Assembly (NCBI GenBank): GCA_965203445.1
Contig: OZ241883.1
Location: 448,001-512,000 of the forward strand
DNA: 64,000 nucleotides
Source: Candidatus Oxydemutator sp.
GTDB taxonomy: Bacteria; Pseudomonadota; Gammaproteobacteria; Poriferisulfidales; Oxydemutatoraceae
Reading direction: 5' to 3'
The translations under genes were made by a program, and so were the position numbers. Every line of letters begins with the position of its first letter. The stretch's first letter is position 1. Below, piece by piece: positions 18,614 to 42,126 of this stretch. The notes under the pieces are model-generated. The model saw only the letters and a list, made by a program, of their open reading frames with translations, ran no database searches and was not told where the DNA came from.

Positions 18614-20671
18614 TCAGATCTCTGATACTTGCAGTTTTTCCCCTATCACACGTTCCCAGTTTTGTAGAGTCGCGCAATAGTATGGGAGTGGTTTGCCCTC
18701 ATACTCAGCGATATGCAGATTTCCTTCGCCAAGCAACAGTGTCAGGATTGGGCGTTTCAGTTCATCTTCTTTCCGGGGATCTTCGGGGCTTTTGCTTTCC
18801 TTGATGAGGTGGTACAACTGGCCGCCATAAACCCCGATTCCATCCTCTCCACTAGGCATCGCCCTGGGTACGCGACAGTACTTGGTATTGCGCTCCTTCA
18901 ATTTCTCCAATAGCTTGTTTTTAACGTCAGCCATTGCAGCCGAGGCCGCTTGAATTACTTCTTGAGCACCAGTGTCTTCAATAACTTGAGTCTGCTGTTC
19001 CTCCTTACATATATTACCCATGTAGACTTCACCGAAATCGCGCAGGCGAACGGGAAGAACAAAGGGTTGGTGCGGTGCACTCCACATGTAGCAGTTGCCG
19101 GGAATGGGTTCCGCAATAAGATGAGCCAGAATATCTGACGAATAGTGAGAGTTGTACTTGCCGAGAACACTGGCATCACCCTCGGAGAGTAAATGAAAGC
19201 AGAACCAGTTGTCCGCCTGACTAAGCAGTTCAGGTGCCATCGCACCGGGCTGTTGCGTGACGAGCATGGCCCCAAGATCGTACTTGCGCCCTTCCTTCAC
19301 CCATTCGACATAGGGACTGGTATCGTCCAGGTTACGGCCGAGGACACTCTGCGCTTCCTCGACAACGGCAACAACGGGAATGATCGGATTTCCGCCCGTA
19401 AAGTGTTCCTGATTGTGCGAGAAAATTTTTCGGAGAAGCAATCCGGCGAGTTTATTGCCCGCACCAGAACTCAACAGGCTGATGTCGATCACAACGACTT
19501 TCCCCTTCGCCAGAGCCTGTAGCGTTCCCGACAAGACTTGGCTGTCCGGATCATGGAGAGTACGTACGACACCAGACATATTGCTGCGGGCAGCTGCGAT
19601 TTCCGCCGTTGACTGAGAAATTTGTCCTATAGCGTAGCCAAGGAGTGTGCCGACTTCCTTATCATCGGCCTGTAGTCCCTTTTCGTAAATCAGCTCAACG
19701 AGCTTGTGCCAGTTAGCATTGGAGACACTCTTGAGTTTGAGTACATTCTGTTGGGATTGGCGATCGGAAGAAACTGCGATGCCGATGACGTCGCGCGGGG
19801 AAAGGTCCCGGATATCGAGTTTCACCTCGCCAGCCTTCCAACTGCCATAGTATGCGCTTGGTGCCTGTCGGTTTGTGAACACCAGAAGTTTTTCCTTCAA
19901 ATCTGGGACGTCGCACAGTCCAGGACGGCCCGCCACACGGTCAGGCCAGAAATACTCGCCATCAGGGTCGAAAATCAGGGTGCCGACGGGACGACCGTTA
20001 GCCGTCGTTGGTTGCGTCTGATACAACTCCGCAATGAGGAACTTGACGAGATTCGACTTCCCATAGCCTGCGCGCGCAAAGACGACGGAGCGTCGAGAAA
20101 CAAGGTTCTTTATATCGAAAGTGACCTGAAGGCGGGGATCAAGAGATATTAATTCCGGCTGTGTCTGTTTGTGATCGGCTCCGCTGAATACGAACTCACC
20201 CAACACGTACTCTCCTAATTCCGTCTTGCCCCGGCTCAGTTTGCAGAGTTCCTGCAAAACCCTCTCGCTGGGCAAAGCGACCTGTGCACCGAGATGCGGG
20301 AGCCTGCGTTGTGAGGGGACGTATATGATACTGTTGCCGTCCGTGCGCACCGCCCCAAGCAATTTCACTTGCACGCGATACTTGAGACGCTGCTCCTTCA
20401 AGTCCTCAGGCACCTTCTGTTGCCTGCGTTGCATCGTGTTGACGTAATCTTCTCCTTCCGGCGCCGCCAGTAATCCAGAAGGAACAAAACGGGTTATGCG
20501 TCCAAGCGAAGCTTCCTCTGGTGACCCGAGTTCGACGAGAAGAAATTGCCCGAGTTGTGGACGGTCGAGCATACTGGCGTCGTACGGAGCAACAATCTCG
20601 GCTGCAAACTCATATCCGCGTTCGTTGAATCCTTTGAACGTTCCTACGATTTTCGAATTTGCGAACAGCAT
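18614..20671 (-). CDS. HerA/FtsK-family ATPase (DUF87) with N-terminal HAS-barrel-like region
   Basis: Walker A ARAGYGKS, IFDPDGEY, Walker B VVEEAQ, EGRKY arginine finger, VTQQP. Confidence 0.9.
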   Translation of the reverse strand: MLFANSKIVGTFKGFNERGYEFAAEIVAPYDASMLDRPQLGQFLLVELGSPEEASLGRITRFVPSGLLAAPEGEDYVNTMQRRQQKVPEDLKEQRLKYRVQVKLLGAVRTDGNSIIYVPSQRRLPHLGAQVALPSERVLQELCKLSRGKTELGEYVLGEFVFSGADHKQTQPELISLDPRLQVTFDIKNLVSRRSVVFARAGYGKSNLVKFLIAELYQTQPTTANGRPVGTLIFDPDGEYFWPDRVAGRPGLCDVPDLKEKLLVFTNRQAPSAYYGSWKAGEVKLDIRDLSPRDVIGIAVSSDRQSQQNVLKLKSVSNANWHKLVELIYEKGLQADDKEVGTLLGYAIGQISQSTAEIAAARSNMSGVVRTLHDPDSQVLSGTLQALAKGKVVVIDISLLSSGAGNKLAGLLLRKIFSHNQEHFTGGNPIIPVVAVVEEAQSVLGRNLDDTSPYVEWVKEGRKYDLGAMLVTQQPGAMAPELLSQADNWFCFHLLSEGDASVLGKYNSHYSSDILAHLIAEPIPGNCYMWSAPHQPFVLPVRLRDFGEVYMGNICKEEQQTQVIEDTGAQEVIQAASAAMADVKNKLLEKLKERNTKYCRVPRAMPSGEDGIGVYGGQLYHLIKESKSPEDPRKEDELKRPILTLLLGEGNLHIAEYEGKPLPYYCATLQNWERVIGEKLQVSEI

Positions 20672-20672
20672 A

Positions 20673-21887
20673 TCAGGCCTCCTTATATCTGAGGTTCGTC
20701 AGCGTCCGTCCCAGATGCTTCATGCGAAGCAAGCGTTCAGATTCTTCATCCGTAAGTCTGCTGCACATTCCTTGAAGCAGCATGTCCTGGAGATCCTGAA
20801 TCTCGAGCCCCGACAGCTTTGCGAAATTGTGCGCTTTCTGGATACACATCGGGTAGTCCGGAATAGGAAAACCTTGCTGCGCATCAACGGTCAGTTGTCC
20901 GAGGATGCGTTCCGCCTGACCAGCCTGCCACTCGGCAACGTCAACGGGCCATACAGGATCCATAGGTCTATCACCGAATTTAACGAGATAGAGTTTCCCA
21001 AAGGACTGGTATAGTCGCCGGCCGGTGTCGTCCTCGTCAGTGGTTTCATACGTGTCGAGCCAGGTACGATCGAAGTTGTAGCACTCGGCCTCAATATCCT
21101 CATCAACCCGAACAAAGCATGGATAAGGTTTGTGAAACGTGGCTTCGAGTTCCAGGGCGACGGCAAGTCGACCGAGTACGGCACTTTGCTTGGCTACCCC
21201 GACTAACGACAGTTGTGCGTTTTCCTTTGCATGAGTGGCAACACCGGCACGGATTTTCTGATCAAGCAAAGGAAACATGTCTCGGGTGAACGATTTGGTT
21301 CGGAGAAGACCATCCCGCACCAAAATTGTATCCCCTCCCCATTGGAGGTTGGGGTTGGCGACGAGATCATATAAGACGGCCCATTCTACAATGTCTCGAT
21401 AGCAGCGCATTGCCCCTGTACTCTTGCCGGGCGTTCCAATCCCTCTGATGAGATACGACATCTGTTCGAGGGTTTTGCCCGTGTCTTGGGCCAACCGCTC
21501 CAGGGGTGTAACTGTATGTCCCGAATCCTGTTTGGTTCTTTCTTCCAGTTCTTCAATGCTGATGGTGCTGGAGACAGCGTCGAGCACATGTTCCTTACCA
21601 CGCGAATCAACCACGCGCACAAGTTCGACAATCGCCGGATTGAAGGCAAGACGGTTATCACCTCCATCCGCAGAGACGAATGAAACGGCATTAACGGAGT
21701 AGGAACGGAGTGGTTTCACTCCATCCCGAAGGCGTTTCGCGTACTCGCGAAACTTTTGGAGATGAGGGACTTCGGAGTTATACGCCTTCATCACCTTTCG
21801 TCTGAGTTCCTCTCTATCCAGGTTAGCGAGTGACACGTTCTCAGCCCATTGTCTCAGCGATTGTATGGAGTCGACGCAGGTTGGCAA
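20673..21887 (-). CDS. NurA-family nuclease
   Basis: SADGG, VRDGLL, VGVAKQS, GFPIPDYP..QKAHNFAKL. GGAGG RBS before the TTG start; ends 1 bp upstream of herA. Confidence 0.82.
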   Translation of the reverse strand: MPTCVDSIQSLRQWAENVSLANLDREELRRKVMKAYNSEVPHLQKFREYAKRLRDGVKPLRSYSVNAVSFVSADGGDNRLAFNPAIVELVRVVDSRGKEHVLDAVSSTISIEELEERTKQDSGHTVTPLERLAQDTGKTLEQMSYLIRGIGTPGKSTGAMRCYRDIVEWAVLYDLVANPNLQWGGDTILVRDGLLRTKSFTRDMFPLLDQKIRAGVATHAKENAQLSLVGVAKQSAVLGRLAVALELEATFHKPYPCFVRVDEDIEAECYNFDRTWLDTYETTDEDDTGRRLYQSFGKLYLVKFGDRPMDPVWPVDVAEWQAGQAERILGQLTVDAQQGFPIPDYPMCIQKAHNFAKLSGLEIQDLQDMLLQGMCSRLTDEESERLLRMKHLGRTLTNLRYKEA

Positions 21888-23007
21888 TGGTTCCTCCCAG
21901 GTTCCAGTTTCTCCATTCAGGGAACCGTTGTGCTCGAGGAAACGCCCATCGCTCGGCCCAATACTCGGTAATCTGGCTTGGTGTCTGCGTTATGTACTCA
22001 GGATGCACTGCTTTTCCAAGAAGAAAGTCGCGTGTATTGCCAGCGAGAGGGATGACAAAAACTTGCCGACGGATTCCGTGCTGAAGAATGTCGGCCTTTA
22101 TTCCCAATTCTGTTGCAGCTTGGCGAATGACCCGTATACGCCAATTTGGTCCATTACCGAATTTGTTTCCTTGGGCATAGGAGTGATTGCGACGGATGAG
22201 GACGTCCCGCAGTTGCGTGAATGTGTCTTCGTCAATATGAAAGTGTCCATAGCCCTGAGAATACCACGTTGGAACTTGATGATTTTCAACATTCGTGAGA
22301 AATGCAGTTCCCTGCGGAATGCGAAGGCGGTTGTATATGGATGATCGTCCAAGTGCCGACGATGTCGTCAGAAGAACAAGTTGTGGTTTCTTTTTCTTTT
22401 CACTTATTACACCCCGATAGTTGCGATACTTCAGGTGGAAATTTCTTACTATCTCGCTGGAGGTAGCCAACAGGGCCACCAACTTACCGCCTAAGATCTT
22501 GCTGTATGGCGGTAAGGCCCCAAGGACAAATGCGTCCATCGTGTGGATTAGACGATCTTTGCGTCCGTTGGCATCCCAACCAACCCAAGCGTCTCGCGGC
22601 GTGAGATTAAAGACGGGATCAGTCAGTCCGATAATACCGATGAGCTTCCCGTTGTTTTTATCTCTGACAAGGTAGCGCATACGCCTCCCGAAGCCTTTGC
22701 TTACTGGAATTGACCAAAGAAGTGAGGCGGCGTTGAATATTTGGGAGTCACAGGTTCCTCCTGCCACAGCAGTTAATTGAGGCTCGATCTCAGAAATATT
22801 AATTTCACGTGGATTGGCGAGATACTGGCGCAGAAGACCAATGTGATGCTCAAAGGAGCCATTCATAGTAGCCATAGTGGCCAAACGTTTTCCTGAGTGG
22901 AACACGCGAATCTGCTTTTTGTTTAAGGTGCTGGGCAAGGATGGAAACTGCTCGGCTACGCTAAGCAGATGTCTTCGTAGGGAATATTCCTTGGGGGTGA
23001 GTTTCAT
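21841..23007 (-). CDS. Druantia DruA-like protein (DUF4338)
   Basis: WSIPVSKGFGRRMRYLV, GLTDPVFNL..RD..VGW, MDAFVLGALPPY..LGGKLVA, TTSSALGRSSIYNRL, GYGHFH, FGNGPNWR, HGIRRQVF. Confidence 0.88.
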   Translation of the reverse strand: MKLTPKEYSLRRHLLSVAEQFPSLPSTLNKKQIRVFHSGKRLATMATMNGSFEHHIGLLRQYLANPREINISEIEPQLTAVAGGTCDSQIFNAASLLWSIPVSKGFGRRMRYLVRDKNNGKLIGIIGLTDPVFNLTPRDAWVGWDANGRKDRLIHTMDAFVLGALPPYSKILGGKLVALLATSSEIVRNFHLKYRNYRGVISEKKKKPQLVLLTTSSALGRSSIYNRLRIPQGTAFLTNVENHQVPTWYSQGYGHFHIDEDTFTQLRDVLIRRNHSYAQGNKFGNGPNWRIRVIRQAATELGIKADILQHGIRRQVFVIPLAGNTRDFLLGKAVHPEYITQTPSQITEYWAERWAFPRAQRFPEWRNWNLGGTIANLRRLHTIAETMG

Positions 23008-23947: not shown

Positions 23948-25222
23948 CTACAGTTTTTCCCACAGACGGCGCGTGGGGACGGCGTGAAGCTTTTCCCCGA
24001 AGCGGATCATTTTCCCCCCGTTATAAACCACCGCGCCGCCGGCAAAGGCGTCCCCCATCGTGGATTGCAGGCGGCGCAGGCCGCGAAAGTCGGAAGGGGA
24101 AATGGTGGCCGAGGACTTCACTTCCACGCCGGCGACGGAGTGCACGCTGCGTTCGATAACGAGGTCCACTTCCACGCCGTCTTTGTCGCGGTAGTGAAAA
24201 AAATCATGCCTTTCATCGTGCCCGTCCGCCTGCCGCCTCAATTCCTGCAGGACGAAAGTTTCCAGCAGTTGTCCGAGCAACGCGCGGTCGTTTCGCAGTT
24301 CCTCCGCGTCCACTTTCAGCAGCGCGCAGGCAAGCCCGGTGTCGGCCAGATGCAGTTTCGGGGTCTTGACGAATCGTTTGCGTCTGTTCGCGTGCCACGC
24401 GGGAATTCTTTCCAGCAGAAACAGCCGCTCCAGCAAAGAGATATAACCTTGAATCGTCGGTCTGCTGTGCTGAAAGTATGCCGCGAGTTTATTGACGTTC
24501 AAAAGCCGCGCCGTGGAGGCCGCCGAAAACGCCAACAGTCTCGGCAGATCCTCGACCGACCGGATGCGTGAAATCGTGAATGCATCGCTATTGGCTATGG
24601 TTGTCAGATAGCTTTGGTACCACTCGATGCGACGTGTCTTGTCGGAGTATTCGAGGGCCGCCGGATAACCGCCATATACTATTCTTTGCGCGGGATCGGT
24701 CAGCGCGACTTGCCAGCGGTTCGGAAACTTTGCCGAGAACAGCAAATCCAGAAAATCCGGTTTTTTGTGTTCCAGCTCGGTTTGCGCGAGCGGATGCATA
24801 CGGACGATTTCCATTCGTCCGGCGAGCGAATCGGAAAGTCCGCGCACGTGCAGAACGCTGACCGAGCCGGTCAAAATGAAGCGCCCTGGAACGCGGTTTT
24901 TGTCAACGGCGAGTTTTATCTGTGAAAAGATTCGGGGAGATTTCTGAATCTCGTCCAATATGACTTTTCTCGGCAGAGAATTGACAAAGCCCACGGGGTC
25001 GTTCAGGACGTAATCCAGGGTTTGTGCATCGTCCATGCTGATATAGACATAGCCCGCGGATTTCCCCACTTTCTGCGCGAGCGTCGTTTTGCCACACTGA
25101 CGCGGCCCATGAATCAGCGTAACCGGAGTGTCTTTCAAGGCCCTTCTCAGGCATGGTTCCACGTGGCGGGGATGCAGTCTTTTCATACGGTTTATTATGT
25201 CCGCAAGTGGGACTGATTGCAA
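23948..25222 (-). CDS. AAA_14 ATPase with DUF4143
   Basis: GPRQCGKTT, ILDEIQK, FILTGS, SLAGR, KTPKLHLADTGL, YRDKDGVEVD, VEVKS. Confidence 0.92.
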   Translation of the reverse strand: MQSVPLADIINRMKRLHPRHVEPCLRRALKDTPVTLIHGPRQCGKTTLAQKVGKSAGYVYISMDDAQTLDYVLNDPVGFVNSLPRKVILDEIQKSPRIFSQIKLAVDKNRVPGRFILTGSVSVLHVRGLSDSLAGRMEIVRMHPLAQTELEHKKPDFLDLLFSAKFPNRWQVALTDPAQRIVYGGYPAALEYSDKTRRIEWYQSYLTTIANSDAFTISRIRSVEDLPRLLAFSAASTARLLNVNKLAAYFQHSRPTIQGYISLLERLFLLERIPAWHANRRKRFVKTPKLHLADTGLACALLKVDAEELRNDRALLGQLLETFVLQELRRQADGHDERHDFFHYRDKDGVEVDLVIERSVHSVAGVEVKSSATISPSDFRGLRRLQSTMGDAFAGGAVVYNGGKMIRFGEKLHAVPTRRLWEKL

Positions 25223-25325
25223 GTTTATATATAGGACGATTAAAAGTTCAGTAAGAGGATGATTGCAAGTTTCATGTATGGCTGATTGAAAGTATTTTCA
25301 CCCCGTAAAAAGCGGCAGGCTGCCG

Positions 25326-26204
25326 CTATCCGTGCCCGATTTTCCAGACGCCCTTTTCTCGGAAGGCCGGGATGGTCTGGCGGCGGGCGGCGTTGGTGAC
25401 GGCGGGTGCCGAGAGTTTTTGTTGCCTGATGTAATCGGACAAGCGGACGATTCGTTCTCCTTTCAGGTAGGCAGTCCGTTTGTGCAGAGATTCCATCAAG
25501 GCCAGGAACAGAATCTTTTCCATCCCCTTTGTCCGGCCGTTGGCGTCGTAATCGCGCAACGCCTGATAGTAGACCTGCTTTTCTTTGTTGCGGATTATGA
25601 CGCAGGGAAATCCCGACTCCAGCAGCTGGAAATTGACGAGCACCCGTCCGATGCGGCCGTTGCCGTCGCAAAACGGATGGATGGATTCAAAATCCAGATG
25701 GAATTTTGCTATTTTGTCGAGAAAATAAGCGTTCATATCGTTTGCGCAGGAAAGCAGAATTTCGCTCATCATTTCTTCGACGTGTTCCGGCGGAGGTGCT
25801 ACGTGATAACCGACGCGCACGAACTCGCCCTGCCGCCGAAAGCGCCCGGCGATGGAGTCGTCAATGCCGCCCATCAGCATATTGTGGAGCAGCAGTATCA
25901 GGTCTCTGGTCAGCGGTTCTCTCTCCGCGGCCCTGTCGCGCTCGTATGCGATCACACGCGCCAGGTTTTTCGCCTCGAACATTTCCCGAATGGATACGTT
26001 TCGGGATAACTTGGTCCCCAGCAGGATTTTCTCGGTCTCCCGCAGGGTCAGCGTGGAGTTTTCTATCGCGTTGGAGTTATAGACGTTCTCCGGCGTTTCC
26101 GCCTCGTCAATCAAGGCCAGCAGGGATTCCTTGCCGGTTTTGAGGGAGGCATATTCCTCCCGCAAACGTTGGATTCTGTCTCTGATGGACGGGGAGATTG
26201 CCAT
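25326..26204 (-). CDS. Fic family protein
   Basis: YNSNAIENSTLT, HPFCDGNGRIGR, short C-terminal HTH-like tail. Confidence 0.93.
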   Translation of the reverse strand: MAISPSIRDRIQRLREEYASLKTGKESLLALIDEAETPENVYNSNAIENSTLTLRETEKILLGTKLSRNVSIREMFEAKNLARVIAYERDRAAEREPLTRDLILLLHNMLMGGIDDSIAGRFRRQGEFVRVGYHVAPPPEHVEEMMSEILLSCANDMNAYFLDKIAKFHLDFESIHPFCDGNGRIGRVLVNFQLLESGFPCVIIRNKEKQVYYQALRDYDANGRTKGMEKILFLALMESLHKRTAYLKGERIVRLSDYIRQQKLSAPAVTNAARRQTIPAFREKGVWKIGHG

Positions 26205-26397
26205 AGGGAAATTCTACCTGTATTCACGCAATAAGTGCAAAAAAACGTGAATTCAGGCACCAAAAACGGGGCTATTCACGATTTCGGGTAGTGTGTATAA
26301 GGCCAGAAACATATCAGACATTTTGTTGACTTGGCCAGGTTCGATGTGTATGCTTCTTACACATGCACATTGAGTGCATTGAATACAGGAGAGTTTC

Positions 26398-26673
26398 ATG
26401 GCAAGAGTGCAGTTGATAATCCCCGACGAGGACCGCACCCGGTTTGCCTACCAGGCACGCCGGGAGGGCATGTCCCTGAGCGCTTGGCTGCGGGCCGCGG
26501 CCGGTGAACGGCTTGTGCGACAGTCGAAAACCAGACGCTTTGAATCCGAAGCAGAACTCGCGGCCTTTTTCGCTGAGTGCGACAAATTGGAAGGCCCGGG
26601 CGTGGAACCGGACTGGAACCAGCACCTGGCCACCATAAACGAATCCCGCCGGCGCGGCATATCAAACACTTGA
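26398..26673 (+). CDS. VapB-like antitoxin
   Basis: RHH-like N-terminus; the stop overlaps the TTG start of the PIN gene. Confidence 0.85.
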   Translation: MARVQLIIPDEDRTRFAYQARREGMSLSAWLRAAAGERLVRQSKTRRFESEAELAAFFAECDKLEGPGVEPDWNQHLATINESRRRGISNT

Positions 26674-27065
26674 TCTTCGTAGATACCAACGTATTCATGT
26701 ACTCGGTGGGCCGGGCACATCCGCTGCAGGAACCGGCCCGCGAATTTTTTGCCGAGTCGGACCGCAATCAGACACCGTTATGCACTTCCGCGGAAGTCTT
26801 ACAGGAACTGGCCCATGCTTACCTTCCCGTGCAGCGACAACGAACGCTCGAGGCTGCCATGTCGCTTGTAATCAGGGCGGGAATTGAGGTTTGGCCTTTG
26901 GAGAGCGAGGATGTACATCTCGCCTGCCAACTGCATGAGCAGTTCCCCACCCTTGGCGTAAGAGACCTCTGCCACCTGGCAAGTTGCCAGCGACACGGAG
27001 CGACCAGTATCAAGACCTTCGATAAAGCCCTCGCCACTGTCGCAAACATCCCGAAAAATATATAG
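26670..27065 (+). CDS. VapC PIN-domain toxin
   Basis: IFVDTNVFMY, SAEVLQE, RDLCHLASC, IKTFDKAL. Confidence 0.9.
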   Translation: MIFVDTNVFMYSVGRAHPLQEPAREFFAESDRNQTPLCTSAEVLQELAHAYLPVQRQRTLEAAMSLVIRAGIEVWPLESEDVHLACQLHEQFPTLGVRDLCHLASCQRHGATSIKTFDKALATVANIPKNI

Positions 27066-27091: not shown

Positions 27092-29527
27092 ATGCCGAGC
27101 AGAATTGTCGATCTAATAAAAAAATGGGCGAACTGGCTGTGGTGCCGAATATCCGCCACTACTGATAGCGGTGATGGCGACAAGCCTGTTCCGCCAAATA
27201 ACGATGTATCCAGTCAGCCGGAAGGTGTTGGACAAGATCGCATCGAGCCATATTCTGATGGTCCCGAGAAACCACTTGACGAGAATCAACGGACAGAGAA
27301 CAAAAATGAGCAGGCGTCTGGCGACGGAAAAACACCCCAGAGTTCTCCTGCGTCAAATAAGCAATCAGGGCTTCCCGCTACCGATACTGATAGCGGCAAG
27401 CCTGTTCCGCCGAATAACGATATATCCAGTCAGCCGGAGGATGTTGAACAAAATCGCATCGAGTCATGTTCTGATGGTCACGAGAAACAACCCGACGAGG
27501 ATCAACGGACAGAGGACAAAATTGAGCGGGCATCTGGCGACGGAATAACGTCCCAAAGTTCTCCTGCGTCAAATAAGCAGTCAGGCCTTTCCGCTACCGA
27601 TGAGGATGACTCCGACTCTTATGATCATGAAAAGCCTGAACTGGCAGGAAACGACAAACCCGTTGGCAGGCAATCCAAGCCTCCCAGAGAAATACCCGCG
27701 AGACGAGGGCGGGAAAGAGGCACCTCGTCCCGGAAGGAAAAGGGAGAACCAAAGAAATCTTCCCCTGGCCCCCGAGCACAACTGATATGCATAGAAAAAG
27801 AACAGCGCTGGGGGCTGTACTTATCTGCGGATGAGGAATGCCCAATAGCAAAAGTTCGGCAAGGAAACGAACCTCTGGCCAGTGCAGGAGGTGAATGGAG
27901 TATTCTATCCTTCCGTGGCAGCTTGTCCATCACCTATGAGGATGGAGAACGTCACGAGATTGAGCTATTCAATGATAGACCGCTGGTCTTCAAATTCCAA
28001 GGCGGATGGCAAGGCACAGGCCACAAAGTCAAATACATCACGAGCGGCCATTTCATCGTCATCGTGCCGCAAGAATGGCATCGCAGAGGGAACGTCCCGG
28101 TCGAACAGGATGGGTGCACGGACTCCGGGTTCATTGCACACTACTTCTCTCGTGGGAGAGAAGACTCATCCGAAGATGCAGGCGGTTTCGGGGAATATGC
28201 CGGCCCATTGACGAAATCCAGCTTCACATTGATCGGGAATCGTATCTTCGACAACTCCGATGAAGGCGAACTGTTCGGCGGCCCGGTTCTGGAGCTGAAC
28301 CTCGCTTCTGAGGTCGAGTGGGTGCGAGTCGGCGAGGAAAGAGATGGCGGATGGCCGGGCGACAACTTCAAGCCGGACAAACCTCTTGCAGAGGTCCTGA
28401 ACGGCCGACAGGGGCGATTCTTCGTTCGTGTGTACGACGATGATACCAAACGGCTGGACAGTGACGAGTTTCGATATTTCGCCAATCTTCAAAAAATCCT
28501 TGTGGATGGCGCGCCCTACAGTGAAACTTCGCTGCTCATTCCGTCTTCGACCGGCCATTCTCCGACGGAAGTGCAGCTCATCGGCACCGAGGATTCCCTC
28601 ATTCTCCCAAAATTGGAGACAGATGAGGCCTGGACAACCGTACGGCCGGACGGCACCGTTGTTGTCAAACCGCATCCAGACGGCGATCATGTTTCTTGTA
28701 AGCTGGAGTCCGATAAGGGCAGCGTCCGGGTGGAAATAAAGCTCCCCCGCATCTGGTGGCGGTTGAGCCAACGCGGGGAACAATCCGAAGACTGGCACAG
28801 CGTACCATTCGAGGTGACGCGCCAGGGATTCAGGGACCGTGCCGAACGGGACGAGGCTATTTGGCTGCGGTTGCCGCTACGTATCGCTTCCGTCAAGGCA
28901 GGATTCGACGAAGAAACAGATCGAAAGTACCGCTCTGACAAGAAGGGAGAAGATGTCGAGATTCCCTTGCTCGATTTTCTCGACTACCGGCAGATTGACC
29001 AACGGCTGAACGCGGACACTTCGCTTAATATTGAAATTGGCGAACAAGTGTTGGCACTTATCCAGGTTTCCAGTGATCCGGTGCCAACGATCCTCTCATT
29101 TGCGTGTGAACCGGAGGCCATCAACGAGGGGGATGTGGCGACCTTGTCCTGGGAAACTCAGGACACGGAACCCGAAGGCGTAACAATCGAACCCGAAATC
29201 GGGTCGGTGAAACCAAATGGCAGCCGCACTGTTTCGCCGAACGAGACCACAACTTATACGCTGAGATTGACGGCTGCCAATATGGATGACGTGACAAAAG
29301 ACGCGACCGTGACGATTCATCGGGAAGCACCGCACGGAACACCACCGGAAGCCATGGTCAAGTGTCGGAGTGGATGGCGACGAGGCAAGGGCTTCAGCCG
29401 GCGCGAACTGCGCGCCGCAGGTCTGGCACCAGAGAACGACGCGCGGGGTTTCATTCCTGTCGACCGCCGCCGACGGAGCATGCATCCGGACAACGTAGCA
29501 ACACTCAGGAGGTTGACTGATGCCTGA
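27092..29527 (+). CDS. Large hypothetical protein: acidic tandem-repeat N-terminus, unknown core, Ig-like domain, C-terminal eL13-like motif
   Basis: 811-aa ORF whose end overlaps the helicase start by 8 bp. PTILSF..ATLSW..VTI..IGSV..GSRTVSP..TTTYTL is Ig-like. The C-terminus reads RGKGFSRRELRAAGL...IPVDRRRRSMHPDNVATL. Confidence 0.8.
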   Translation: MPSRIVDLIKKWANWLWCRISATTDSGDGDKPVPPNNDVSSQPEGVGQDRIEPYSDGPEKPLDENQRTENKNEQASGDGKTPQSSPASNKQSGLPATDTDSGKPVPPNNDISSQPEDVEQNRIESCSDGHEKQPDEDQRTEDKIERASGDGITSQSSPASNKQSGLSATDEDDSDSYDHEKPELAGNDKPVGRQSKPPREIPARRGRERGTSSRKEKGEPKKSSPGPRAQLICIEKEQRWGLYLSADEECPIAKVRQGNEPLASAGGEWSILSFRGSLSITYEDGERHEIELFNDRPLVFKFQGGWQGTGHKVKYITSGHFIVIVPQEWHRRGNVPVEQDGCTDSGFIAHYFSRGREDSSEDAGGFGEYAGPLTKSSFTLIGNRIFDNSDEGELFGGPVLELNLASEVEWVRVGEERDGGWPGDNFKPDKPLAEVLNGRQGRFFVRVYDDDTKRLDSDEFRYFANLQKILVDGAPYSETSLLIPSSTGHSPTEVQLIGTEDSLILPKLETDEAWTTVRPDGTVVVKPHPDGDHVSCKLESDKGSVRVEIKLPRIWWRLSQRGEQSEDWHSVPFEVTRQGFRDRAERDEAIWLRLPLRIASVKAGFDEETDRKYRSDKKGEDVEIPLLDFLDYRQIDQRLNADTSLNIEIGEQVLALIQVSSDPVPTILSFACEPEAINEGDVATLSWETQDTEPEGVTIEPEIGSVKPNGSRTVSPNETTTYTLRLTAANMDDVTKDATVTIHREAPHGTPPEAMVKCRSGWRRGKGFSRRELRAAGLAPENDARGFIPVDRRRRSMHPDNVATLRRLTDA
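27161..27602 (+). repeat. Two ~216-bp (72-aa) in-frame tandem repeats
   Basis: caagcctgttccgcc at 27181 and 27397; KPVPPNND.SSQPE...QSSPASNKQSGL.ATD occurs twice. Confidence 0.92.
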
Positions 29528-32500
29528 CGCAAACGACATCGAACGGTGGACCGAAATGATCCGCCAACGGTACGAGAACTACCTGAAGACGTCCTTTTAC
29601 TTCAAGGATGGCAACCTTCGGGACTCGTTCCGGTCTGCTCTGCAAGAAGGCGGCAGCCTGCTGAAGGGGCCGTTTCCCGAACCGGCGCGCGGCTTCAAGA
29701 AGGGTATGCATGCAAGGAATCTGGCACAGAACTGTTTTCCCAAAAAGAGTGAGGAGGTTCTTCCTGCGCTACTGATTGATAAACATGACTACCAGTTGTA
29801 CGTCCATCAGGAACGCGCGATACGCGCTGTACACCTGGATCGGCAAAACATCGTCGTCGCTACCGGCACCAGCAGCGGAAAGACGGAAAGTTTTCTTTAT
29901 CCCATCCTGTTCGAGCTGTTCCATCAGTACCTCACAGACAAACTGCGGGAACCGGGTGTGCGGGCTTTGATCCTGTATCCGATGAACGCGCTTGCCAACG
30001 ATCAGCGTGAACGCCTTGGGGGTATCTGCCAGGAGCTGGCCGATGCAGGATCGGCATTTCGCCCGACCTTCGGGCAATACATCGGCCAGACACCCGAGGA
30101 CGAAAAGGACCACCGGCGCAATGCCACGGCGTGGGAGGAAAGACGACTCCCTAGTGAGCTCGTCTTTCGTAAGGAAATGCGGGACACTCCGCCCCACATT
30201 CTGCTTACCAACTACTCTATGCTGGAGTACCTGCTGATTCGTCCCGACGACAGTCCACTCTTCGACGGAGATCGGGGTACACACTGGCAGTTCATCGTGT
30301 TGGACGAGGCACACCAGTACCGGGGTGCCAAAGGCATGGAGATGGGCATGTTGATCCGGCGCCTCAAGCAACGGCTGCGTGACGGCGGGCGGAAGGAAAC
30401 TTTCCGCTGTATCGCCACCAGCGCAACCATTTCGTCCGGCGAAGACGAGAAAGATAGACAAGCAGTCGCGCAGTTTGCAAAATCGCTTTTTGGAGAACCG
30501 TTCTCGGCATCCGGCATCATCTTTGGAGAGGCGGAACAACCAAGCGCGGACGAATCGCCACGCCGCTACCATGCCTTTCTACGCTCGCTCGAAGGCGCGT
30601 TTTTGGTTCATAGAGACGGTGCGGACGCTGTCGTGCTCAATCGAAAAGGTGTAGCAGAAAGCGATTCGACCTCAGAACCTTTGGAGATCGCACTGTGCCG
30701 CGAGTGTGGACAGCACTACTACGTTGGCCAAGAGCAGGGCGGAAAGTTGCAGGAGGCCGTACGGGACCCCAGCCAGTCGAACTTCGGCGTGGAATACTAC
30801 CTGCCGTCGGAGGATGGAGATCATCTCCTTTGCAGGCGTTGCGGGATGCTTTCCATGTCGAAACCGGCATGCGATTGCGGCGTATCGGTTCACGTCAAGC
30901 AGTGCCAACCCCACCAAGAGCATGCCGACCAGTTAAAGCAATGCGAGACGTGCGGGTATCAGCGCGGCGGCATCGGCGATCCCGTGCAAGAGATCGTCCA
31001 CGGCTCCGATGCGCCCAATGCCGTCATTGCGACCGCGCTCCACGAACTCTTGCCCGAGGACCGGCGCAAAGTGCTGGCTTTTGCCGACAGTCGCCAAGAG
31101 GCCGCATTCTTTGCGTGGTATGCCGAGGACTCCTACGCAAAGCTACGCGACCGCAATCTGATGTTTCGCGCGATGAAAGCGGGACCAATCGATCCGGAAG
31201 GCTTATCCATTGACGACCTCAAAAACCGGCTACATAAACAGTGGGAAGAGGCTGGCTTGTTCGATGAGCCAGATGCCAGGGAGAGCAATGACCGAAAAGT
31301 GCTGATGTCGATCCTCCGCGAAGCGGTGACGGACGAGCGGAGGTTGTCTTTGAGTGGGGTCGGTCTGGTCAGGTGGTCCATCAAAATTCCTGACGACGTG
31401 GAATTACCCTTGGCAATGCAGCCACCTTGGAATCTGACAGAGGATGAAACACGTCGTTTGCTCGGGTATCTTATGGATGAATTGCGAGTTCGCCGTGCCA
31501 TGAATCTACCGGAAGGCCCTGGGGTGCCGGGATGGAGTGACGTATCGACTCGGAATCAACAAGCATACTGTCAGGGAATGCCGGGCAATAGGAGAAACGT
31601 TCGAAAATGGGGCGGTCCCCAATCCACAATCGTCAGCCACTTCCTTCGCAGGCTCCTGACGGACAGCAATCTTTCAGATGACAAGAGACGGTCAGCCTCC
31701 ACCGAACTCATGAAGAATGTCTGGCAGACTTTGCGCAAGCGCGACGGTGAACGCGGCACGGCTGATTGCATTCTTTCCAGTACAAGCATCAATGGAGCAT
31801 TTCGTCTCAACCCGCGCTGGCTTCGAATACAGCTGGCTGCATCAGGCGAAATCTGGGAATGCGATACCTGCGCAAGCCTGACCGCCCATAACGTGCGCAA
31901 AGTTTGTCCTCGGAATAAATGTCCCGGAAAACTGGAACCTGCCGACCAATCGCGCCTCCGGCAAAATCACTATCGAATCCTCTACGAAAGTGCCGACTTG
32001 CCAGCCGCATTGTATGCGGAGGAGCACACGGCGCAGATCGAAAGTGACGAAGCACGCAAAAGACAGGATCGGTTCAAAGACGGAAAAACGCATTTGCTCA
32101 GTTCCTCGACGACGTTCGAGGTCGGCGTCGACCTCGGTGATTTGGAGGTCGTGTTCCTGCGCAACGTCCCACCGGAACCGTTCAACTATACCCAGCGCGT
32201 CGGGCGAGCCGGACGCCGCGAGACACCGGGATTGGCGGTCACCTATTGCCGCCGCAACCCGCACGACCTCTACCACTTCAAGAGTCCGGAGGAACGGGTC
32301 ATAAAGGGCAAGGTGCGACCACCACGGTTGCAAATGACGAACATGAAAATCGTGATCCGACACATGGTCGCCGCAGCTTTGTCGACATTCTTTAAGGAGA
32401 ATAGTACGCGCTTCGCAAAGGTAGAGGCGTTCGTTGGAAATTGGGCGACCCCCTCCGCCGTTTCCGACTTGAAACGATTCTGCAAAAACAATGCTGAATT

Positions 32501-33779
32501 AAGGAACACGCTTCGCCAGATCGTGCCGAAGAACATGTACCAGGACACGGGGCTTGTCGGCGACGACTGGATTGACAACGTTGCGGGACCGAAGAGCCGT
32601 TTCGCCGATATGGAAGAGGAAGTGTGTGCGGATTACCAAGCAATGAAGACGGCTAAGGACTCTCTTATTGAGCGGCAGCCCCGGGGGTGGACTGAAAAAG
32701 TGAAACAGTTGGAAAGTCGGATGGAGACCATCGCCGGCGAACAGACGTTGCAGTTCCTTTCTCGAAAAGCGGTAATCCCAAAATATGGGTTTCCGGTTGA
32801 TGTCGTCGAACTCGATACGCGTCCGCAAGATGGCAAGCCGACAGGTGTCTCGCTCCAGCGGGACCTGTCCCAGGCCATTGCCGAATACGCACCGGAAGGA
32901 AAGGTCATCGCCAACAAGCTTGAATGGCAGTCCTATGGTATCAAAGCGATCCCTGAAAAAGCATGGCCCGTCCGACACTATGAATATGATGAAGCACGGA
33001 ATTTCAGACAATGGATTGAAGGCGACCCGGGGGCTTCCCCTAATAGCCGGAAATACCTTTCTCCTATATTTGGTTTCGTGACCCAGCTTTTCAAGCAGCC
33101 CAAGAAGCCCCGTGGGCGGGCGCGACGCCTGTACACAACACGACCGTTTTTCCAAGGATTCGGAGGCGATAGCCAGCCCGAAAGCAAGACCATCCTCGGC
33201 GTGCAAGTCACCAAAGCGACGCCGGGAACTCTGGTCATACTCTGCGAAGGCAGGAACAAGAAAGGTTTCTGGATATGCCGTTCTTGCGGTGCCCACATGG
33301 CGGAACCAGCAGACACGCACAATTCCCCCTCGAACTCCACCTGCCGAGGCACACTCGCACGGTTCTCGCTTGGGCACGAATTGGTGACAGATGTCGTGCG
33401 TTTGCAGTTTCCGCAACTGATTGAGGAGTGGCACGCATACTCCGTTGCATACGCCGTTCTACTCGGTGCGGCGGAAACGTTGGATGTTCCGAATACCGAT
33501 CTGAACGTGACAATCACTGGTAGCGGCAGTCGGGATGAGTCCGCGGTAGTGTTGTACGATAACGTTCCCGGTGGAGCCGGACTGGTCGCGCAATTGGAGG
33601 AAGCCAACGTTTTCGAGGAAGTCCTCGAAAACGCACGAAAGCGCGTTCAGGGAAACTGCGGTTGCGATTCCAGTTGCTACGGCTGCCTGCGCAGCTACCG
33701 CAATCAGTTTGCGCACCCGTATCTGCAAAGGCAGACAGCACTGGAATTTCTCTCAAGGCCAGGGTTACCTGGTTTGTGA
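29520..33779 (+). CDS. SF2 DEAH helicase with C-terminal DUF1998 (DruE/Hrq1-MrfA-like)
   Basis: TGTSSGKT, YPMNALANDQ, TNYSMLEYLL, DEAH, TSAT, FADSRQEAA, TTFEVGVDLG, QRVGRAGR, several CxxC pairs, YDNVPGGAG...CGCDSSCYGCLRSYRN. Confidence 0.93.
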   Translation: MPDANDIERWTEMIRQRYENYLKTSFYFKDGNLRDSFRSALQEGGSLLKGPFPEPARGFKKGMHARNLAQNCFPKKSEEVLPALLIDKHDYQLYVHQERAIRAVHLDRQNIVVATGTSSGKTESFLYPILFELFHQYLTDKLREPGVRALILYPMNALANDQRERLGGICQELADAGSAFRPTFGQYIGQTPEDEKDHRRNATAWEERRLPSELVFRKEMRDTPPHILLTNYSMLEYLLIRPDDSPLFDGDRGTHWQFIVLDEAHQYRGAKGMEMGMLIRRLKQRLRDGGRKETFRCIATSATISSGEDEKDRQAVAQFAKSLFGEPFSASGIIFGEAEQPSADESPRRYHAFLRSLEGAFLVHRDGADAVVLNRKGVAESDSTSEPLEIALCRECGQHYYVGQEQGGKLQEAVRDPSQSNFGVEYYLPSEDGDHLLCRRCGMLSMSKPACDCGVSVHVKQCQPHQEHADQLKQCETCGYQRGGIGDPVQEIVHGSDAPNAVIATALHELLPEDRRKVLAFADSRQEAAFFAWYAEDSYAKLRDRNLMFRAMKAGPIDPEGLSIDDLKNRLHKQWEEAGLFDEPDARESNDRKVLMSILREAVTDERRLSLSGVGLVRWSIKIPDDVELPLAMQPPWNLTEDETRRLLGYLMDELRVRRAMNLPEGPGVPGWSDVSTRNQQAYCQGMPGNRRNVRKWGGPQSTIVSHFLRRLLTDSNLSDDKRRSASTELMKNVWQTLRKRDGERGTADCILSSTSINGAFRLNPRWLRIQLAASGEIWECDTCASLTAHNVRKVCPRNKCPGKLEPADQSRLRQNHYRILYESADLPAALYAEEHTAQIESDEARKRQDRFKDGKTHLLSSSTTFEVGVDLGDLEVVFLRNVPPEPFNYTQRVGRAGRRETPGLAVTYCRRNPHDLYHFKSPEERVIKGKVRPPRLQMTNMKIVIRHMVAAALSTFFKENSTRFAKVEAFVGNWATPSAVSDLKRFCKNNAELRNTLRQIVPKNMYQDTGLVGDDWIDNVAGPKSRFADMEEEVCADYQAMKTAKDSLIERQPRGWTEKVKQLESRMETIAGEQTLQFLSRKAVIPKYGFPVDVVELDTRPQDGKPTGVSLQRDLSQAIAEYAPEGKVIANKLEWQSYGIKAIPEKAWPVRHYEYDEARNFRQWIEGDPGASPNSRKYLSPIFGFVTQLFKQPKKPRGRARRLYTTRPFFQGFGGDSQPESKTILGVQVTKATPGTLVILCEGRNKKGFWICRSCGAHMAEPADTHNSPSNSTCRGTLARFSLGHELVTDVVRLQFPQLIEEWHAYSVAYAVLLGAAETLDVPNTDLNVTITGSGSRDESAVVLYDNVPGGAGLVAQLEEANVFEEVLENARKRVQGNCGCDSSCYGCLRSYRNQFAHPYLQRQTALEFLSRPGLPGL

Positions 33780-39537: not shown

Positions 39538-42126
39538 TCAGTCATTTCGCTTGGCGACAGCGGTAGAGGCTGATGGATGGTTGACCTCCGAGCTAACAGG
39601 GGCAGGTAAGATCCCCAATCTATCAATAATTTTCTGTCGATCCCTATAGTTAATAGTATGCGTACGAGAATGTCCGACTATTTCAAAGTCTAAGATTCTC
39701 CTTGCTATTACAGAGAAGTCCTTTTTATTTCTCCTTTCAGCAATAGATTCTATTTGTAAATTTTTGCTGTACCACATCAATATTCCATGTTTTATGATAA
39801 AAGAAGCTGGAGTATTCCTCTTATCACATACTGCTTCGACAATATTTATTAACTTATCTGAACCTAAGGAATGTACTATTTTGTAGAGTACTCCATAAAT
39901 AAGAAGAAAATTTATATTCCAAAAAATAATCCTCGATACTTTTTCTAATTCTTTCCGGCTTGGTCTTTTCTTTTTGCTCTCCGCGAATATTTCTAATCTA
40001 TCGGAAATAAATTTCACCAACTCTTCTTGCTGATATTCTTCTCTTATTAATTCAAAAAATGATGATAAAAACCTCAATTGAATATCCATTGCCTTCTCAA
40101 ATGTTTCTTTAAGATATTCTTTTTCAAGCGAGCCAGCACGATTCTTTATAATCTGTCCCATAACCTCCGCCGTTTTGATGCCTTTTCTTAACTCATTTTC
40201 AAACTCATCTTCCACTTCGCCACTTTCAAAACCTTTTTCCTCCATCTCTTTCGCTTCTTCAATGACATCTTGAGACTTTAGTTGATCATGTCTGGTTCTT
40301 TCTGGCGTTTGATCCGTGGGCAGAGCGGCTGTGACTATATCATTAGCGTGTTTATCAAAAAAATTAAGTTCTTCTTTGCCTAATGATGCTGGCTTATAGT
40401 TCTTAAATATATCGTCAGCGTTAATAAAGGCTTTCTTTAAGACTTGAATATTTTTAGAGTGATGAAATACAAATACCGCAATATAAGCATTTTCATTTGT
40501 ATGAAGATTACTGATAATTCTGCTAATGCTTTTCTCACACTCATTCAAATGCTCTGCTATATATCTAGCAGCAAAAAAATAGTACAAATATAGATAACAA
40601 AAAGAGTAGTTCCCAAGGCTATCTCTACATAATATTTGTGTTCTCTGTAAATTTTTTAGTAGGGTATCTTCTTTCACGGGGAAATTATACTTCTGTAAAT
40701 AATCTCTCATAAAATTCCGATAATCATTCTGTGATACTTCTCGTTTCCTATTTTTAAAAAAATGAAAGGCAAATACAGTTAGAAAATTGATATAAGTGTC
40801 TATTTCATCGTTTCCTATTCCTTGTTTCCGCAACGCACAATATATTAGCGCTTGGTAACAATACCCTTGTGATGTGATTTCCTCGTTTAGTGGTTTAAGT
40901 GTTTCATAAGTACAAATCGCCGATAAAATAAAGAAAGGATACGCTGGCATTATTCCACTGCCTAGAATCTTGCCCAAAATGGAGTCCACTAATTCTGTTG
41001 TTTTATCAATATTCTCATAATGATCATTCATGCCACCGCTATCCTGACCTGCTAAATCTGTCCATCTGCCAATTAACTCACTCCTCAAAGATGGCTTTAA
41101 TTCCTCAATCTGAAAATGAGGGAATGACCTCGTCAGGCTTTCATCTTTCAGATTCAAGCTGAAAATATCATCAACTATGATTATTCTATTTTTGTACAAA
41201 GATAACCGATTAATATGTTTTTCTTTGTTTGTGGCCAAATGAAAATCATCAATAATAGGAACGATTCTGTTTGCGCCAATCTCATCAATTGAAGCAGCGT
41301 TGTACTGCTTCTTAAAAGCAGCGGCTATCCTGTTTTCTACTACTCCAGCAAGACGCTTATTTTCATCATGAACGTAAACAGGTACTAACCCTTTTTCTCT
41401 CAATACTGTGAATAGTTTTTTGCACAAAGTAGTTTTTCCTGATTGATTCTCTCCAGCAATCAACACGGCAGAATATTCTGTGATGTTCTTTATTAGGACC
41501 TCAGAACTAATATACTCTCTCTTATCTTTTGAACGATCATACTTTGATAATGTCGGATAAATGAAAATATCGTCCAAGCGTAGTGTTTCTTTGCCAGAGT
41601 GAGCGCGTGTCAATAGTTCCGCGCTGCCTAAAAAATCTTGGAAACTATCTTTAATTACTAGTTGTTTGCATTTGTTCTCACTCACAATAACTTTCTTCAA
41701 CTCTTCATAAACAGAATGCCATGCGGTGTCAGAAGTTTCAAAACTCGAAACAGGCTTTCCATCTTTGGGCAAGGCTAACAACTCGAAAATATCACCATCA
41801 TCTTTCCAGCCACATTCTTTTAGAATTATTGGCACGACTGAAATACCCTTTTTATTTTTGAGCTCAATGGCTCGTTTCTTCTCATTAATACACTCGTCCG
41901 AGGCAAGAAACTCTGCTGATATAAATAGACAAATAATATCTGCCTGCTCGAGATTATTATGTATATGATCTCGAAATATCGCACCGGGTAATATTTTTCT
42001 GTCGTACCAATCTTCAATTAATCCCTTTTGCTTAAGTGGATCAATATGCTTAGTAAACTTCTCAATATCAGCTTCATCCTCATGGCAATAGCTGATAAAT
42101 AGTTTTAACTTTTGAGTTTCACTCAT
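39538..42126 (-). CDS. TIR domain plus STAND-like P-loop NTPase (internal start)
   Basis: Own RBS and ATG (aaaggagaaattttATG at 42126); 862 aa; markedly AT-rich. Confidence 0.8.
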   Translation of the reverse strand: MSETQKLKLFISYCHEDEADIEKFTKHIDPLKQKGLIEDWYDRKILPGAIFRDHIHNNLEQADIICLFISAEFLASDECINEKKRAIELKNKKGISVVPIILKECGWKDDGDIFELLALPKDGKPVSSFETSDTAWHSVYEELKKVIVSENKCKQLVIKDSFQDFLGSAELLTRAHSGKETLRLDDIFIYPTLSKYDRSKDKREYISSEVLIKNITEYSAVLIAGENQSGKTTLCKKLFTVLREKGLVPVYVHDENKRLAGVVENRIAAAFKKQYNAASIDEIGANRIVPIIDDFHLATNKEKHINRLSLYKNRIIIVDDIFSLNLKDESLTRSFPHFQIEELKPSLRSELIGRWTDLAGQDSGGMNDHYENIDKTTELVDSILGKILGSGIMPAYPFFILSAICTYETLKPLNEEITSQGYCYQALIYCALRKQGIGNDEIDTYINFLTVFAFHFFKNRKREVSQNDYRNFMRDYLQKYNFPVKEDTLLKNLQRTQILCRDSLGNYSFCYLYLYYFFAARYIAEHLNECEKSISRIISNLHTNENAYIAVFVFHHSKNIQVLKKAFINADDIFKNYKPASLGKEELNFFDKHANDIVTAALPTDQTPERTRHDQLKSQDVIEEAKEMEEKGFESGEVEDEFENELRKGIKTAEVMGQIIKNRAGSLEKEYLKETFEKAMDIQLRFLSSFFELIREEYQQEELVKFISDRLEIFAESKKKRPSRKELEKVSRIIFWNINFLLIYGVLYKIVHSLGSDKLINIVEAVCDKRNTPASFIIKHGILMWYSKNLQIESIAERRNKKDFSVIARRILDFEIVGHSRTHTINYRDRQKIIDRLGILPAPVSSEVNHPSASTAVAKRND

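Follow-up and report, generated by a model that had tools for sequence, protein, structure and literature searches.

The C-terminus of a protein that is encoded directly upstream of a DruE-type helicase is a swap site for gene-expression modules. This is the main new result from the analysis of a 64,000-nucleotide stretch of DNA from Candidatus Oxydemutator sp. (contig OZ241883.1, positions 448,001 to 512,000, forward strand), whose whole length is called the window here and in which all positions are counted unless a locus is named. The protein, P0001, is called the partner in the following. In the window it ends in a module related to the ribosomal protein eL13, and in a minority of the family this place is taken by parts of the transcription and translation machinery. 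There is hardly any doubt about what the parts are, but much more about the mechanism. As a whole we explain the pair, with moderate confidence, as a Druantia type III-like anti-phage module of two genes, in which DruE works together with a partner that carries an exchangeable targeting or bait module. An earlier note on the same DNA had reported that an open reading frame (ORF) of 811 amino acids (aa) overlaps one of 1419 aa; both ORFs, the overlap and the C-terminal string quoted there were recovered in the translation.

27092..29527, + strand: partner gene P0001, 811 aa, ATG start, upstream of the helicase gene with an 8-bp overlap
29520..33779, + strand: gene of the DruE-type (YprA-family) superfamily 2 (SF2) helicase, 1419 aa, ATG start, without nuclease domain
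29336..29524, + strand: eL13-like C-terminal module of the partner, residues 749-811, from sequence profiles and predicted fold

A hidden Markov model of the eL13 module was built from 107 family rows and run on 253 collected proteins, and 216 of them (~85%) carry the module. The tails of the remaining 37 were read by eye: about 7 are fragments, 3 are unrelated immunoglobulin (Ig)-repeat proteins and about 27 have other tails. The C-terminus is complete at 60 loci, of which 44 show the strict eL13 motifs, 7 are eL13-like by eye (only L062 of these was tested with the profile, giving 4.1e-5) and 9 end differently. Several of the alternative tails belong to well-known families. The bacterial ribosomal protein uS17 is found in P0063 (2.4e-30) and at L043 (1.3e-30, over the NCBIfam cut-off), the omega subunit of RNA polymerase at L016 (Pfam 4.6e-9, over the gathering score; NCBIfam 1.6e-12), uS5 in P0166 (residues 692-814 against uS5 31-153, 7.3e-23) and the AR2 repeat of NusA in P0250 (residues 435-500, ~1e-6 to 5e-9). 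In P0104 a NusB domain (2.1e-27) is inserted ahead of an eL13 module that is retained. DruE lies directly downstream at both L016 and L043. These two belong to six loci with non-eL13 tails (L016, L033, L040, L043, L054 and L057) in which the partner and DruE genes do not overlap and are separated by 73-170 nt, which fits a replacement of the eL13 end by an inserted foreign cassette. The earlier note had proposed that the eL13 fold was recruited as an RNA- or nucleic-acid-binding sensor or adaptor. This picture of a single recruited fold is too narrow, because there are several exchangeable modules, of which eL13 is just the most frequent one.

The origin of one such module can be followed directly. 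The omega tail of L016 (L016:9603-9914) aligns with the rpoZ gene of its own host without gaps along 311 nt, 7 of which are mismatched (97.7% DNA identity), and this host rpoZ (L073) is located on the same contig, 730 kb away. The copied stretch takes in 5 nt ahead of the ATG and ~10 nt behind the stop codon and is fused in frame to the Ig-like domain. Within the coding part the two copies differ at 4 positions, all of them synonymous, and the encoded omega is complete, with 99% protein identity to that of the host. L016 is thus a recent capture of a host gene.

Two readings of the modules have to be weighed at this point. The module could be an integrated decoy, i.e., a bait that copies host proteins bound or modified by phages (omega, NusA, NusB, uS5, uS17), so that a phage factor in contact with the bait switches on DruE. 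The observation that unrelated folds, several of them whole host proteins, occupy one fixed position speaks for this, as does the near-exact rpoZ copy at L016 with its purely synonymous coding changes, although four such changes are a small sample. The available passages of the papers on E. coli DruH likewise argue that the non-helicase partner is the sensor of infection (10.64898/2026.05.12.724681), and an integrated-decoy model was proposed, in the part of the paper at hand, for bNACHT11, there without an identified host-derived domain (PMC11702601). A parallel exists in plant NLR receptors with integrated decoys, in which varied host-derived domains are also found at a fixed position of an immune protein; the partner differs from these in its unrelated scaffold, without NLR or STAND ATPase, and in a commonest module that has no host counterpart. 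The last point is a difficulty, as eL13 is, to our knowledge, absent from bacterial ribosomes, and the large majority of the proteins (216/253) would therefore have nothing to imitate. The eL13-like module would in the decoy reading be an old, generalised version of a bait. In addition, the identity between the uS17 tail of L043 and the uS17 of its own host reaches only 46%. We regard an integrated decoy as somewhat unlikely.

In the second reading the module would be a tether that attaches the partner to RNA polymerase, 30S subunits, Nus complexes or nascent RNA and thereby delivers DruE to single-stranded DNA (ssDNA) at transcription bubbles or R-loops of the phage. Omega, NusA-AR2, NusB, uS5 and uS17 are all constituents of RNA polymerase, Nus or 30S complexes, and a full-length omega that is so close to that of the host could occupy the same site. 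However, eL13 would have no docking site in bacteria, and a ribosomal protein that carries ~750 extra residues may not assemble into the subunit at all. A tether is therefore, in our estimation, rather unlikely.

Not every tail could be assigned to a family. The basic coiled-coil tails of L035, L040 and the P0024 group were considered as uL29-like and gave nothing significant in Pfam, NCBIfam or PDB, and for the tails of P0138 and P0194, considered as bS6-like, there was no PDB match at E<=1. A recurrent type of tail, shared by L029, L057 and P0189, likewise had no significant match in Pfam, NCBIfam or a further search. Host paralogues of the tails of L029, L033 and L057 and of the insert of L051 were not found in their own genomes, and the L040 tail has a weak one (E 2e-3). 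The tail of L053 is 44% identical to a stand-alone 149-aa ORF of its host (L075:1438-1887, - strand), which suggests that proteins of unassigned role are also captured as modules. This ORF adjoins a MoeA-like gene and a transposase-like ORF, both recognised by eye. The eL13 module itself is split by an insert of ~70 aa in L051 (9429-9647) and L052, without a paralogue elsewhere in either genome, and at L020 by a different insert that repeats a core motif.

For the module of the window the earlier note had read an eL13 signature at the C-terminal end, and NCBIfam, phmmer against PDB and the predicted fold all agree with this. The Pfam family Ribosomal_L13e (PF01294) matches residues 760-800 (E 2.7e-4; 21.3 bits, under the gathering score of 24.9) and the NCBIfam model of archaeal L13e PRK12277 (NF008914) matches residues 759-808 (E 2.7e-11; 42.9 bits, under the equivalog cut-off of 96), so that the module scores under both curated family cut-offs. 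Against PDB the best phmmer match is the eL13 of Pyrobaculum (9e6q_AH, E 1.9e-4), and 19 of the 20 matches at E<=1 are eL13. When residues 749-811 of the AlphaFold2 model were compared with 48,161 chains in a search independent of Foldseek, eL13 chains were the top matches (Z 9.0, 8.9, 8.9 and 8.5; root-mean-square deviation (rmsd) 1.6-2.0 A; 61-63 residues aligned; 25-39% identity). Among them are 4v8p_AU with Z 9.0 over 63 residues (rmsd 1.8 A), 9e6q_AH with Z 8.9 over 61 residues (rmsd 1.6 A, 39% identity) and 8g6j_LL with Z 8.5. PF01294 is matched at E<=0.01 by 42 of 60 partner homologues, and G765, G767, F768, S769, E772, D791, R793, R794, H798 and N801 are nearly invariant. Judged by sequence profiles and predicted fold, the last ~60 residues of the partner are a true homologue of the eL13 core. 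The module and eL13 share this core, with 39% identity to the Pyrobaculum protein over 61 residues and 35% to the human one. The N- and C-terminal extensions of eukaryotic eL13 are absent from the module, and whereas eL13 is a free protein of the ribosomal subunit, it is here a ~60-residue C-terminal domain of a bacterial protein of 811 aa.

Upstream of this module the partner is predicted to be modular throughout, with a short helix conserved at the N-terminus, a lengthy disordered linker and a rigid array of ~6 beta-sandwich domains. Its parts, apart from the eL13-like module, are as follows.

27092..27160, + strand: short N-terminal amphipathic helix motif, ~residues 1-23, N-termini read by eye
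27161..27778, + strand: low-complexity linker rich in Ser/Pro/Asp/Glu, residues 24-229, from composition
27779..29080, + strand: conserved all-beta core, residues 230-663, ~5 beta-sandwich (Ig/FN3-like) domains, from AlphaFold2
29081..29335, + strand: Ig/PKD-like domain, residues 664-748, weak Pfam matches to He_PIG, Big_9 and PKD

The amphipathic helix motif recurs, by eye, at the N-terminus of many homologues. The linker shows no conservation in the family consensus and differs in length, with an N-terminal extension of 0-430 aa (median 188) that is followed by a small basic motif; in the window its acidic, Ser/Pro-rich part (27161-27620, partner residues ~25-175) contains a tandem duplication of ~74 aa. 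The core, on the other hand, holds invariant residues in the family alignment. Residues 230-811 were modelled by AlphaFold2 with a mean confidence score (pLDDT) of 87.2, another AlphaFold2 model of the partner reached 90.6, and this structured part of ~580 aa is predicted to be all-beta. Fold searches were run with the whole model and with its N-terminal 346 residues. For the core, both Foldseek against PDB and the Foldseek-independent searches returned generic tandem Ig/FN3 arrays only (best Z 6.6-7.2), and a search of the ESM Atlas gave no usable match. The Ig/PKD-like domain before the C-terminal module (model residues 435-518) matches Ig, FN3 and PKD domains with Z ~8 and is missing from some homologues. 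No recognisable nuclease was found in either the partner or DruE.

The partner and DruE form one unit. A scan of one genome per species yielded 65 partner loci, all in metagenome-assembled genomes (MAGs) whose record titles name many phyla. In this survey of the neighbourhoods for the DUF1998 helicase, DruE was encoded directly downstream in 59 of the 65 loci, as expected from the coupling that the earlier note had seen in the window; its match starts between -35 and +170 nt from the stop codon of the partner and overlaps the partner gene in 43 of these 59. A third conserved gene was not detected, since no other flanking gene cluster occurs in more than 5 of the 65 loci. The six loci without DruE comprise three short contigs, two gene fragments and L009. 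The last (L009:7413-13137) is the sole locus that has room for DruE and lacks it; here an overlap of 8 bp joins the partner gene to a GmrSD_N (DUF262) gene, which is followed by a gene for a PtuA/OLD-like ATPase. The partner, as a putative sensor, may be able to pair with another set of effectors.

Some of the DruE matches deviate from the usual 4.2 kb. At L018 the match spans only the first ~400 residues, at L019, L055 and L063 it extends over 5.2-6.7 kb, and at L027 additional DruE-like matches start upstream of the partner. The anomalies at L019, L055, L063 and L027 could be insertions in DruE, longer forms of DruE or a second copy.

The partner was detected in 0 of 40 related genomes (same genus, family or order), yet the loci come from MAGs of many phyla, which gives the pair an accessory, mobile character. 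At E<=1e-3 there are 261 homologues of the partner. A profile search of 1.84 billion representatives returned 1,546 proteins at E<=1e-30, a count inflated by unrelated Ig-repeat giants; among the best 150 of the 1,546, 147 have a family-like length and a long single match and 3 are such giants. The record titles include Candidatus Poriferihabitaceae, Binatia, Latescibacterota, Dadabacteria and SAR202, lineages which we take to be sponge-associated. The partner family may be spreading in a single habitat. In two DNA runs labelled as sponge metagenome (X3 and X5), 0.32-0.39 of the words sampled from the window stretch are present.

The helicase had been described before as a DEAH/DUF1998 protein, and the Pfam domains DEAD, Helicase_C and MZB/DUF1998 as well as the DruE models of PADLOC bear this out.

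29805..30437, + strand: DEAD/DEAH helicase domain, residues 96-306 (PF00270, 4.3e-18)
32019..32219, + strand: helicase C-terminal domain, residues 834-900 (PF00271, 7.4e-11)
33447..33689, + strand: MZB / DUF1998 zinc-binding domain, residues 1310-1390 (PF09369, 1.1e-13)

PADLOC assigns it to DruE1 (5.5e-160) and DruE3 (5e-151). It aligns with residues 94-1713 of the 2104-aa DruE of E. coli ATCC 8739 at 28-34% identity, with the GxxxGKT Walker A motif and the DEAH box visible in the alignment, and ends 29 residues past the MZB domain. The helicase therefore lacks the C-terminal PLD-like nuclease region of type III-A. A sequence search of PDB placed 9tu7_Y first (4.5e-72), a protein of 2108 aa deposited under the name 'DEAD/DEAH box helicase', and the YprA/MrfA structure 6znp is a relative (3.2e-23). 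By sequence it is a compact, nuclease-less DruE of the YprA family of SF2 helicases.

The relationship to 6znp, together with the omega, NusA and NusB modules that point to transcription, could also be taken as a sign of a system without immune function, i.e., transcription-linked DNA repair or an R-loop helicase system akin to MrfA/YprA. The MrfA/YprA repair helicase belongs to the same helicase family and shares the MZB domain. However, MrfA pairs with the exonuclease MrfB and acts in repair, whereas the helicase of the window resembles DruE, is much longer and has an Ig-array protein for a partner. It also scores far better with the DruE models than with anything else, and the partner is missing from the relatives, scattered over phyla and located among defence genes. 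A non-immune function is for these reasons hardly probable.

Among anti-phage systems Druantia is one of the most widespread. The type III form with two genes was dissected only in 2025-2026, and what the non-helicase partner does is debated, with an ssDNA binder, a sensor of phage proteins and a nuclease under discussion. The passages available on the E. coli system describe DruH as composed of J-like baseplate domains, Ig-like domains and large helical regions (10.64898/2026.05.12.722862; 10.64898/2026.05.12.724681). Our partner could not be linked to this protein by sequence. PADLOC gave no match at all for P0001, and its DruH models were matched by 0 of 60 homologues at E<=0.1, whereas E. 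coli DruH, used as positive control, matches 10 of the DruH3 models (~1,000-1,170 positions, except for one C-terminal model of 596). An alignment of 120 family sequences compared with E. coli DruH by hhalign resulted in a probability of 0.2%, and BLASTP of the partner against it found nothing significant (best E 1.7). The possibility that the partner is a described DruH by sequence was rejected on these grounds. With respect to the fold, DruH is not among the fold-search matches listed, which is no evidence of differing folds; the libraries end on 2026-04-08 and may lack the DruH structure 9tud, which is present in the PDB sequence set.

This bears on the view that the pair is an ordinary Druantia type III, with a very divergent DruH as partner, a small basic structural appendage as eL13-like tail and noise in the other tails. 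The layout agrees with that of type III-A (E. coli DruH-DruE), which also consists of two co-oriented genes with the partner first and a YprA-family DruE with DUF1998, and overlapping genes fit this as well. Ig-like domains occur in E. coli DruH, as far as the passages describe it, and in the model of our partner. Moreover, in the part of the source at hand, nuclease-less helicases are already reported to prevail in a 'Druantia type III-like' branch (Bell et al., 2025, 10.1101/2025.09.15.676423). The differences concern both proteins. E. coli DruE carries C-terminal PLD-like nuclease domains, which are absent from the DruE of the window. The DruH proteins described in these passages have ~1,100 aa and large helical regions (1,119 aa and the YjiT family for E. 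coli), compared to ~580 structured, predicted all-beta residues in the partner, and neither an eL13 nor another gene-expression module is mentioned in the passages on E. coli DruH. Together with the failure of PADLOC, hhalign and BLASTP to connect the two, and with the ten nearly invariant residues of the eL13 module, which argue for a function, this makes an ordinary type III quite improbable.

A compact form of Druantia has been named type III-B, according to the passage available (10.64898/2026.05.13.724758), and the M. smegmatis pair of a DruH (1,132 aa) and a DruE (1,667 aa) without nuclease is reported, in the part of the paper at hand, to defend against phage (PMC13316683). Such type III-B or type III-like systems share with our pair the compact DruE without canonical nuclease and the overlapping two-gene operon. 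Their DruH, at 1,132 aa in M. smegmatis, is longer than the partner of 811 aa, a comparison made through size and the PADLOC DruH3 models only. The pair is thus better called a variant of the two-gene layout of Druantia type III, with a compact nuclease-less DruE and a partner that by sequence is not the described DruH. The earlier note had put it forward as a candidate new two-gene system, which holds in that the partner is not the described DruH by sequence and the pair is conserved, but not in that the layout of type III had already been described, by Bell et al. (2025) and in the 2026 paper on type III-A.

Returning to the two-gene module with an exchangeable end, we infer its function in defence, the target bound, the coupling to DruE and the final effector as follows. 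The C-terminal module would decide to what the system attaches or by what it is triggered. In the eL13 type it would most likely bind RNA or single-stranded nucleic acid; this is favoured because the module is small and basic and keeps residues that are conserved in real eL13, and by analogy because E. coli DruH, in the passages available, holds ssDNA at the interface of its Ig-like subdomain and its C-terminal domain (10.64898/2026.05.12.722862). The array of beta-sandwiches would couple an event at the module to DruE. DruE, in turn, may act on ssDNA as in E. coli, where it is described, in the passage at hand, as a 3'-to-5' helicase triggered by ssDNA (10.64898/2026.05.13.724758). As the M. 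smegmatis pair shows, defence is possible without a nuclease.

A number of points weigh against this explanation. No single binding target fits all modules, and docking on host machinery fails to explain the commonest one, as bacteria have no eL13. Omega is not a nucleic-acid binder. The low identity of the L043 tail to its host uS17 and the several tail types that match no family in the searches made belong here, too. P0063, P0104, P0166 and P0250 are database proteins without contigs, and the linkage figures exclude the uS5, NusA and NusB variants. The fold matches rest on predicted models, and the eL13 Z of ~9 is only modestly over the Z of ~8 reached by generic Ig domains. The archaeal L13e model found the partner as its sole match in the 2.38-Mb genome, and the same search was silent in 14 of 14 control genomes, archaea included, which makes its sensitivity doubtful and leaves it with little weight. 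Finally, PADLOC has no model for the partner, and standard tools would consequently call no complete system.

The earlier note knew of no partner in Druantia or DISARM that carries eL13, and the literature is in line with this: no paper was found that joins Druantia with L13e, eL13 or Ribosomal_L13e, in a search that did not extend to the supplements of Bell et al. (2025), where III-like partners are perhaps named. Among the matches listed, no paper joins Druantia with NusB, RpoZ, uS17, the omega subunit or eL13, and none was found that combines integrated decoy, anti-phage and ribosomal protein. For Druantia in sponges or symbionts no relevant paper turned up, judged by titles and the openings of abstracts.

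The family would provide a second, unrelated partner for the DruE helicase, one whose business end is readable from the sequence. It is also a clear case of a ribosomal protein domain of archaeal/eukaryotic type that is maintained by selection in bacteria of many phyla. If the modules are baits or tethers, they would link a DNA-helicase defence to the transcription-translation machinery and give a direct handle on the trigger. Should the decoy be true, this would be the first bacterial immune sensor with baits readable from sequence, each of which names a host protein attacked by phages. The architecture of the putative sensor is unusual and easy to test.

The pair is located in a defence island, as the earlier note had stated, with DruA, a HerA-like ATPase, PDC-S01, Fic, PIN, the R subunit of a type I restriction system and a TIR/STAND ORF close by. 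Just 5' of the partner (23948-27065) genes for PDC-S01 (AAA_14 + DUF4143), a Fic/SoFic-like protein and a PIN-domain protein are found, and 27 bp separate the end of the PIN gene from the ATG of the partner. A PIN domain is fused within the same protein in 1 of 60 partner homologues. Further upstream, on the opposite strand (18614-23007, - strand), a DruA gene is followed by a 404-aa ORF without PADLOC match and a HerA-like DUF87 ATPase.

21841-23007, - strand: DruA gene (PADLOC DruA1, 5.2e-120)

DruB, DruC and DruD are not present in this cluster, and DruA, the 404-aa ORF, HerA and PIN accompany the partner-DruE pair in 0 of the 65 loci. With DruA 4 kb away on the other strand, the pair does not correspond to Druantia type I (DruABCDE). 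The DruA gene, the 404-aa ORF and the HerA-like ATPase could be a separate, undescribed DruA-containing module. Downstream of the pair, a single 1355-aa ORF (39538-43605, - strand) comprises a nucleotidyltransferase, a complete HsdS, a TIR domain and a STAND NTPase (PDC-S60-like), and is either a real fusion or the product of a missed stop or frameshift in the assembly.

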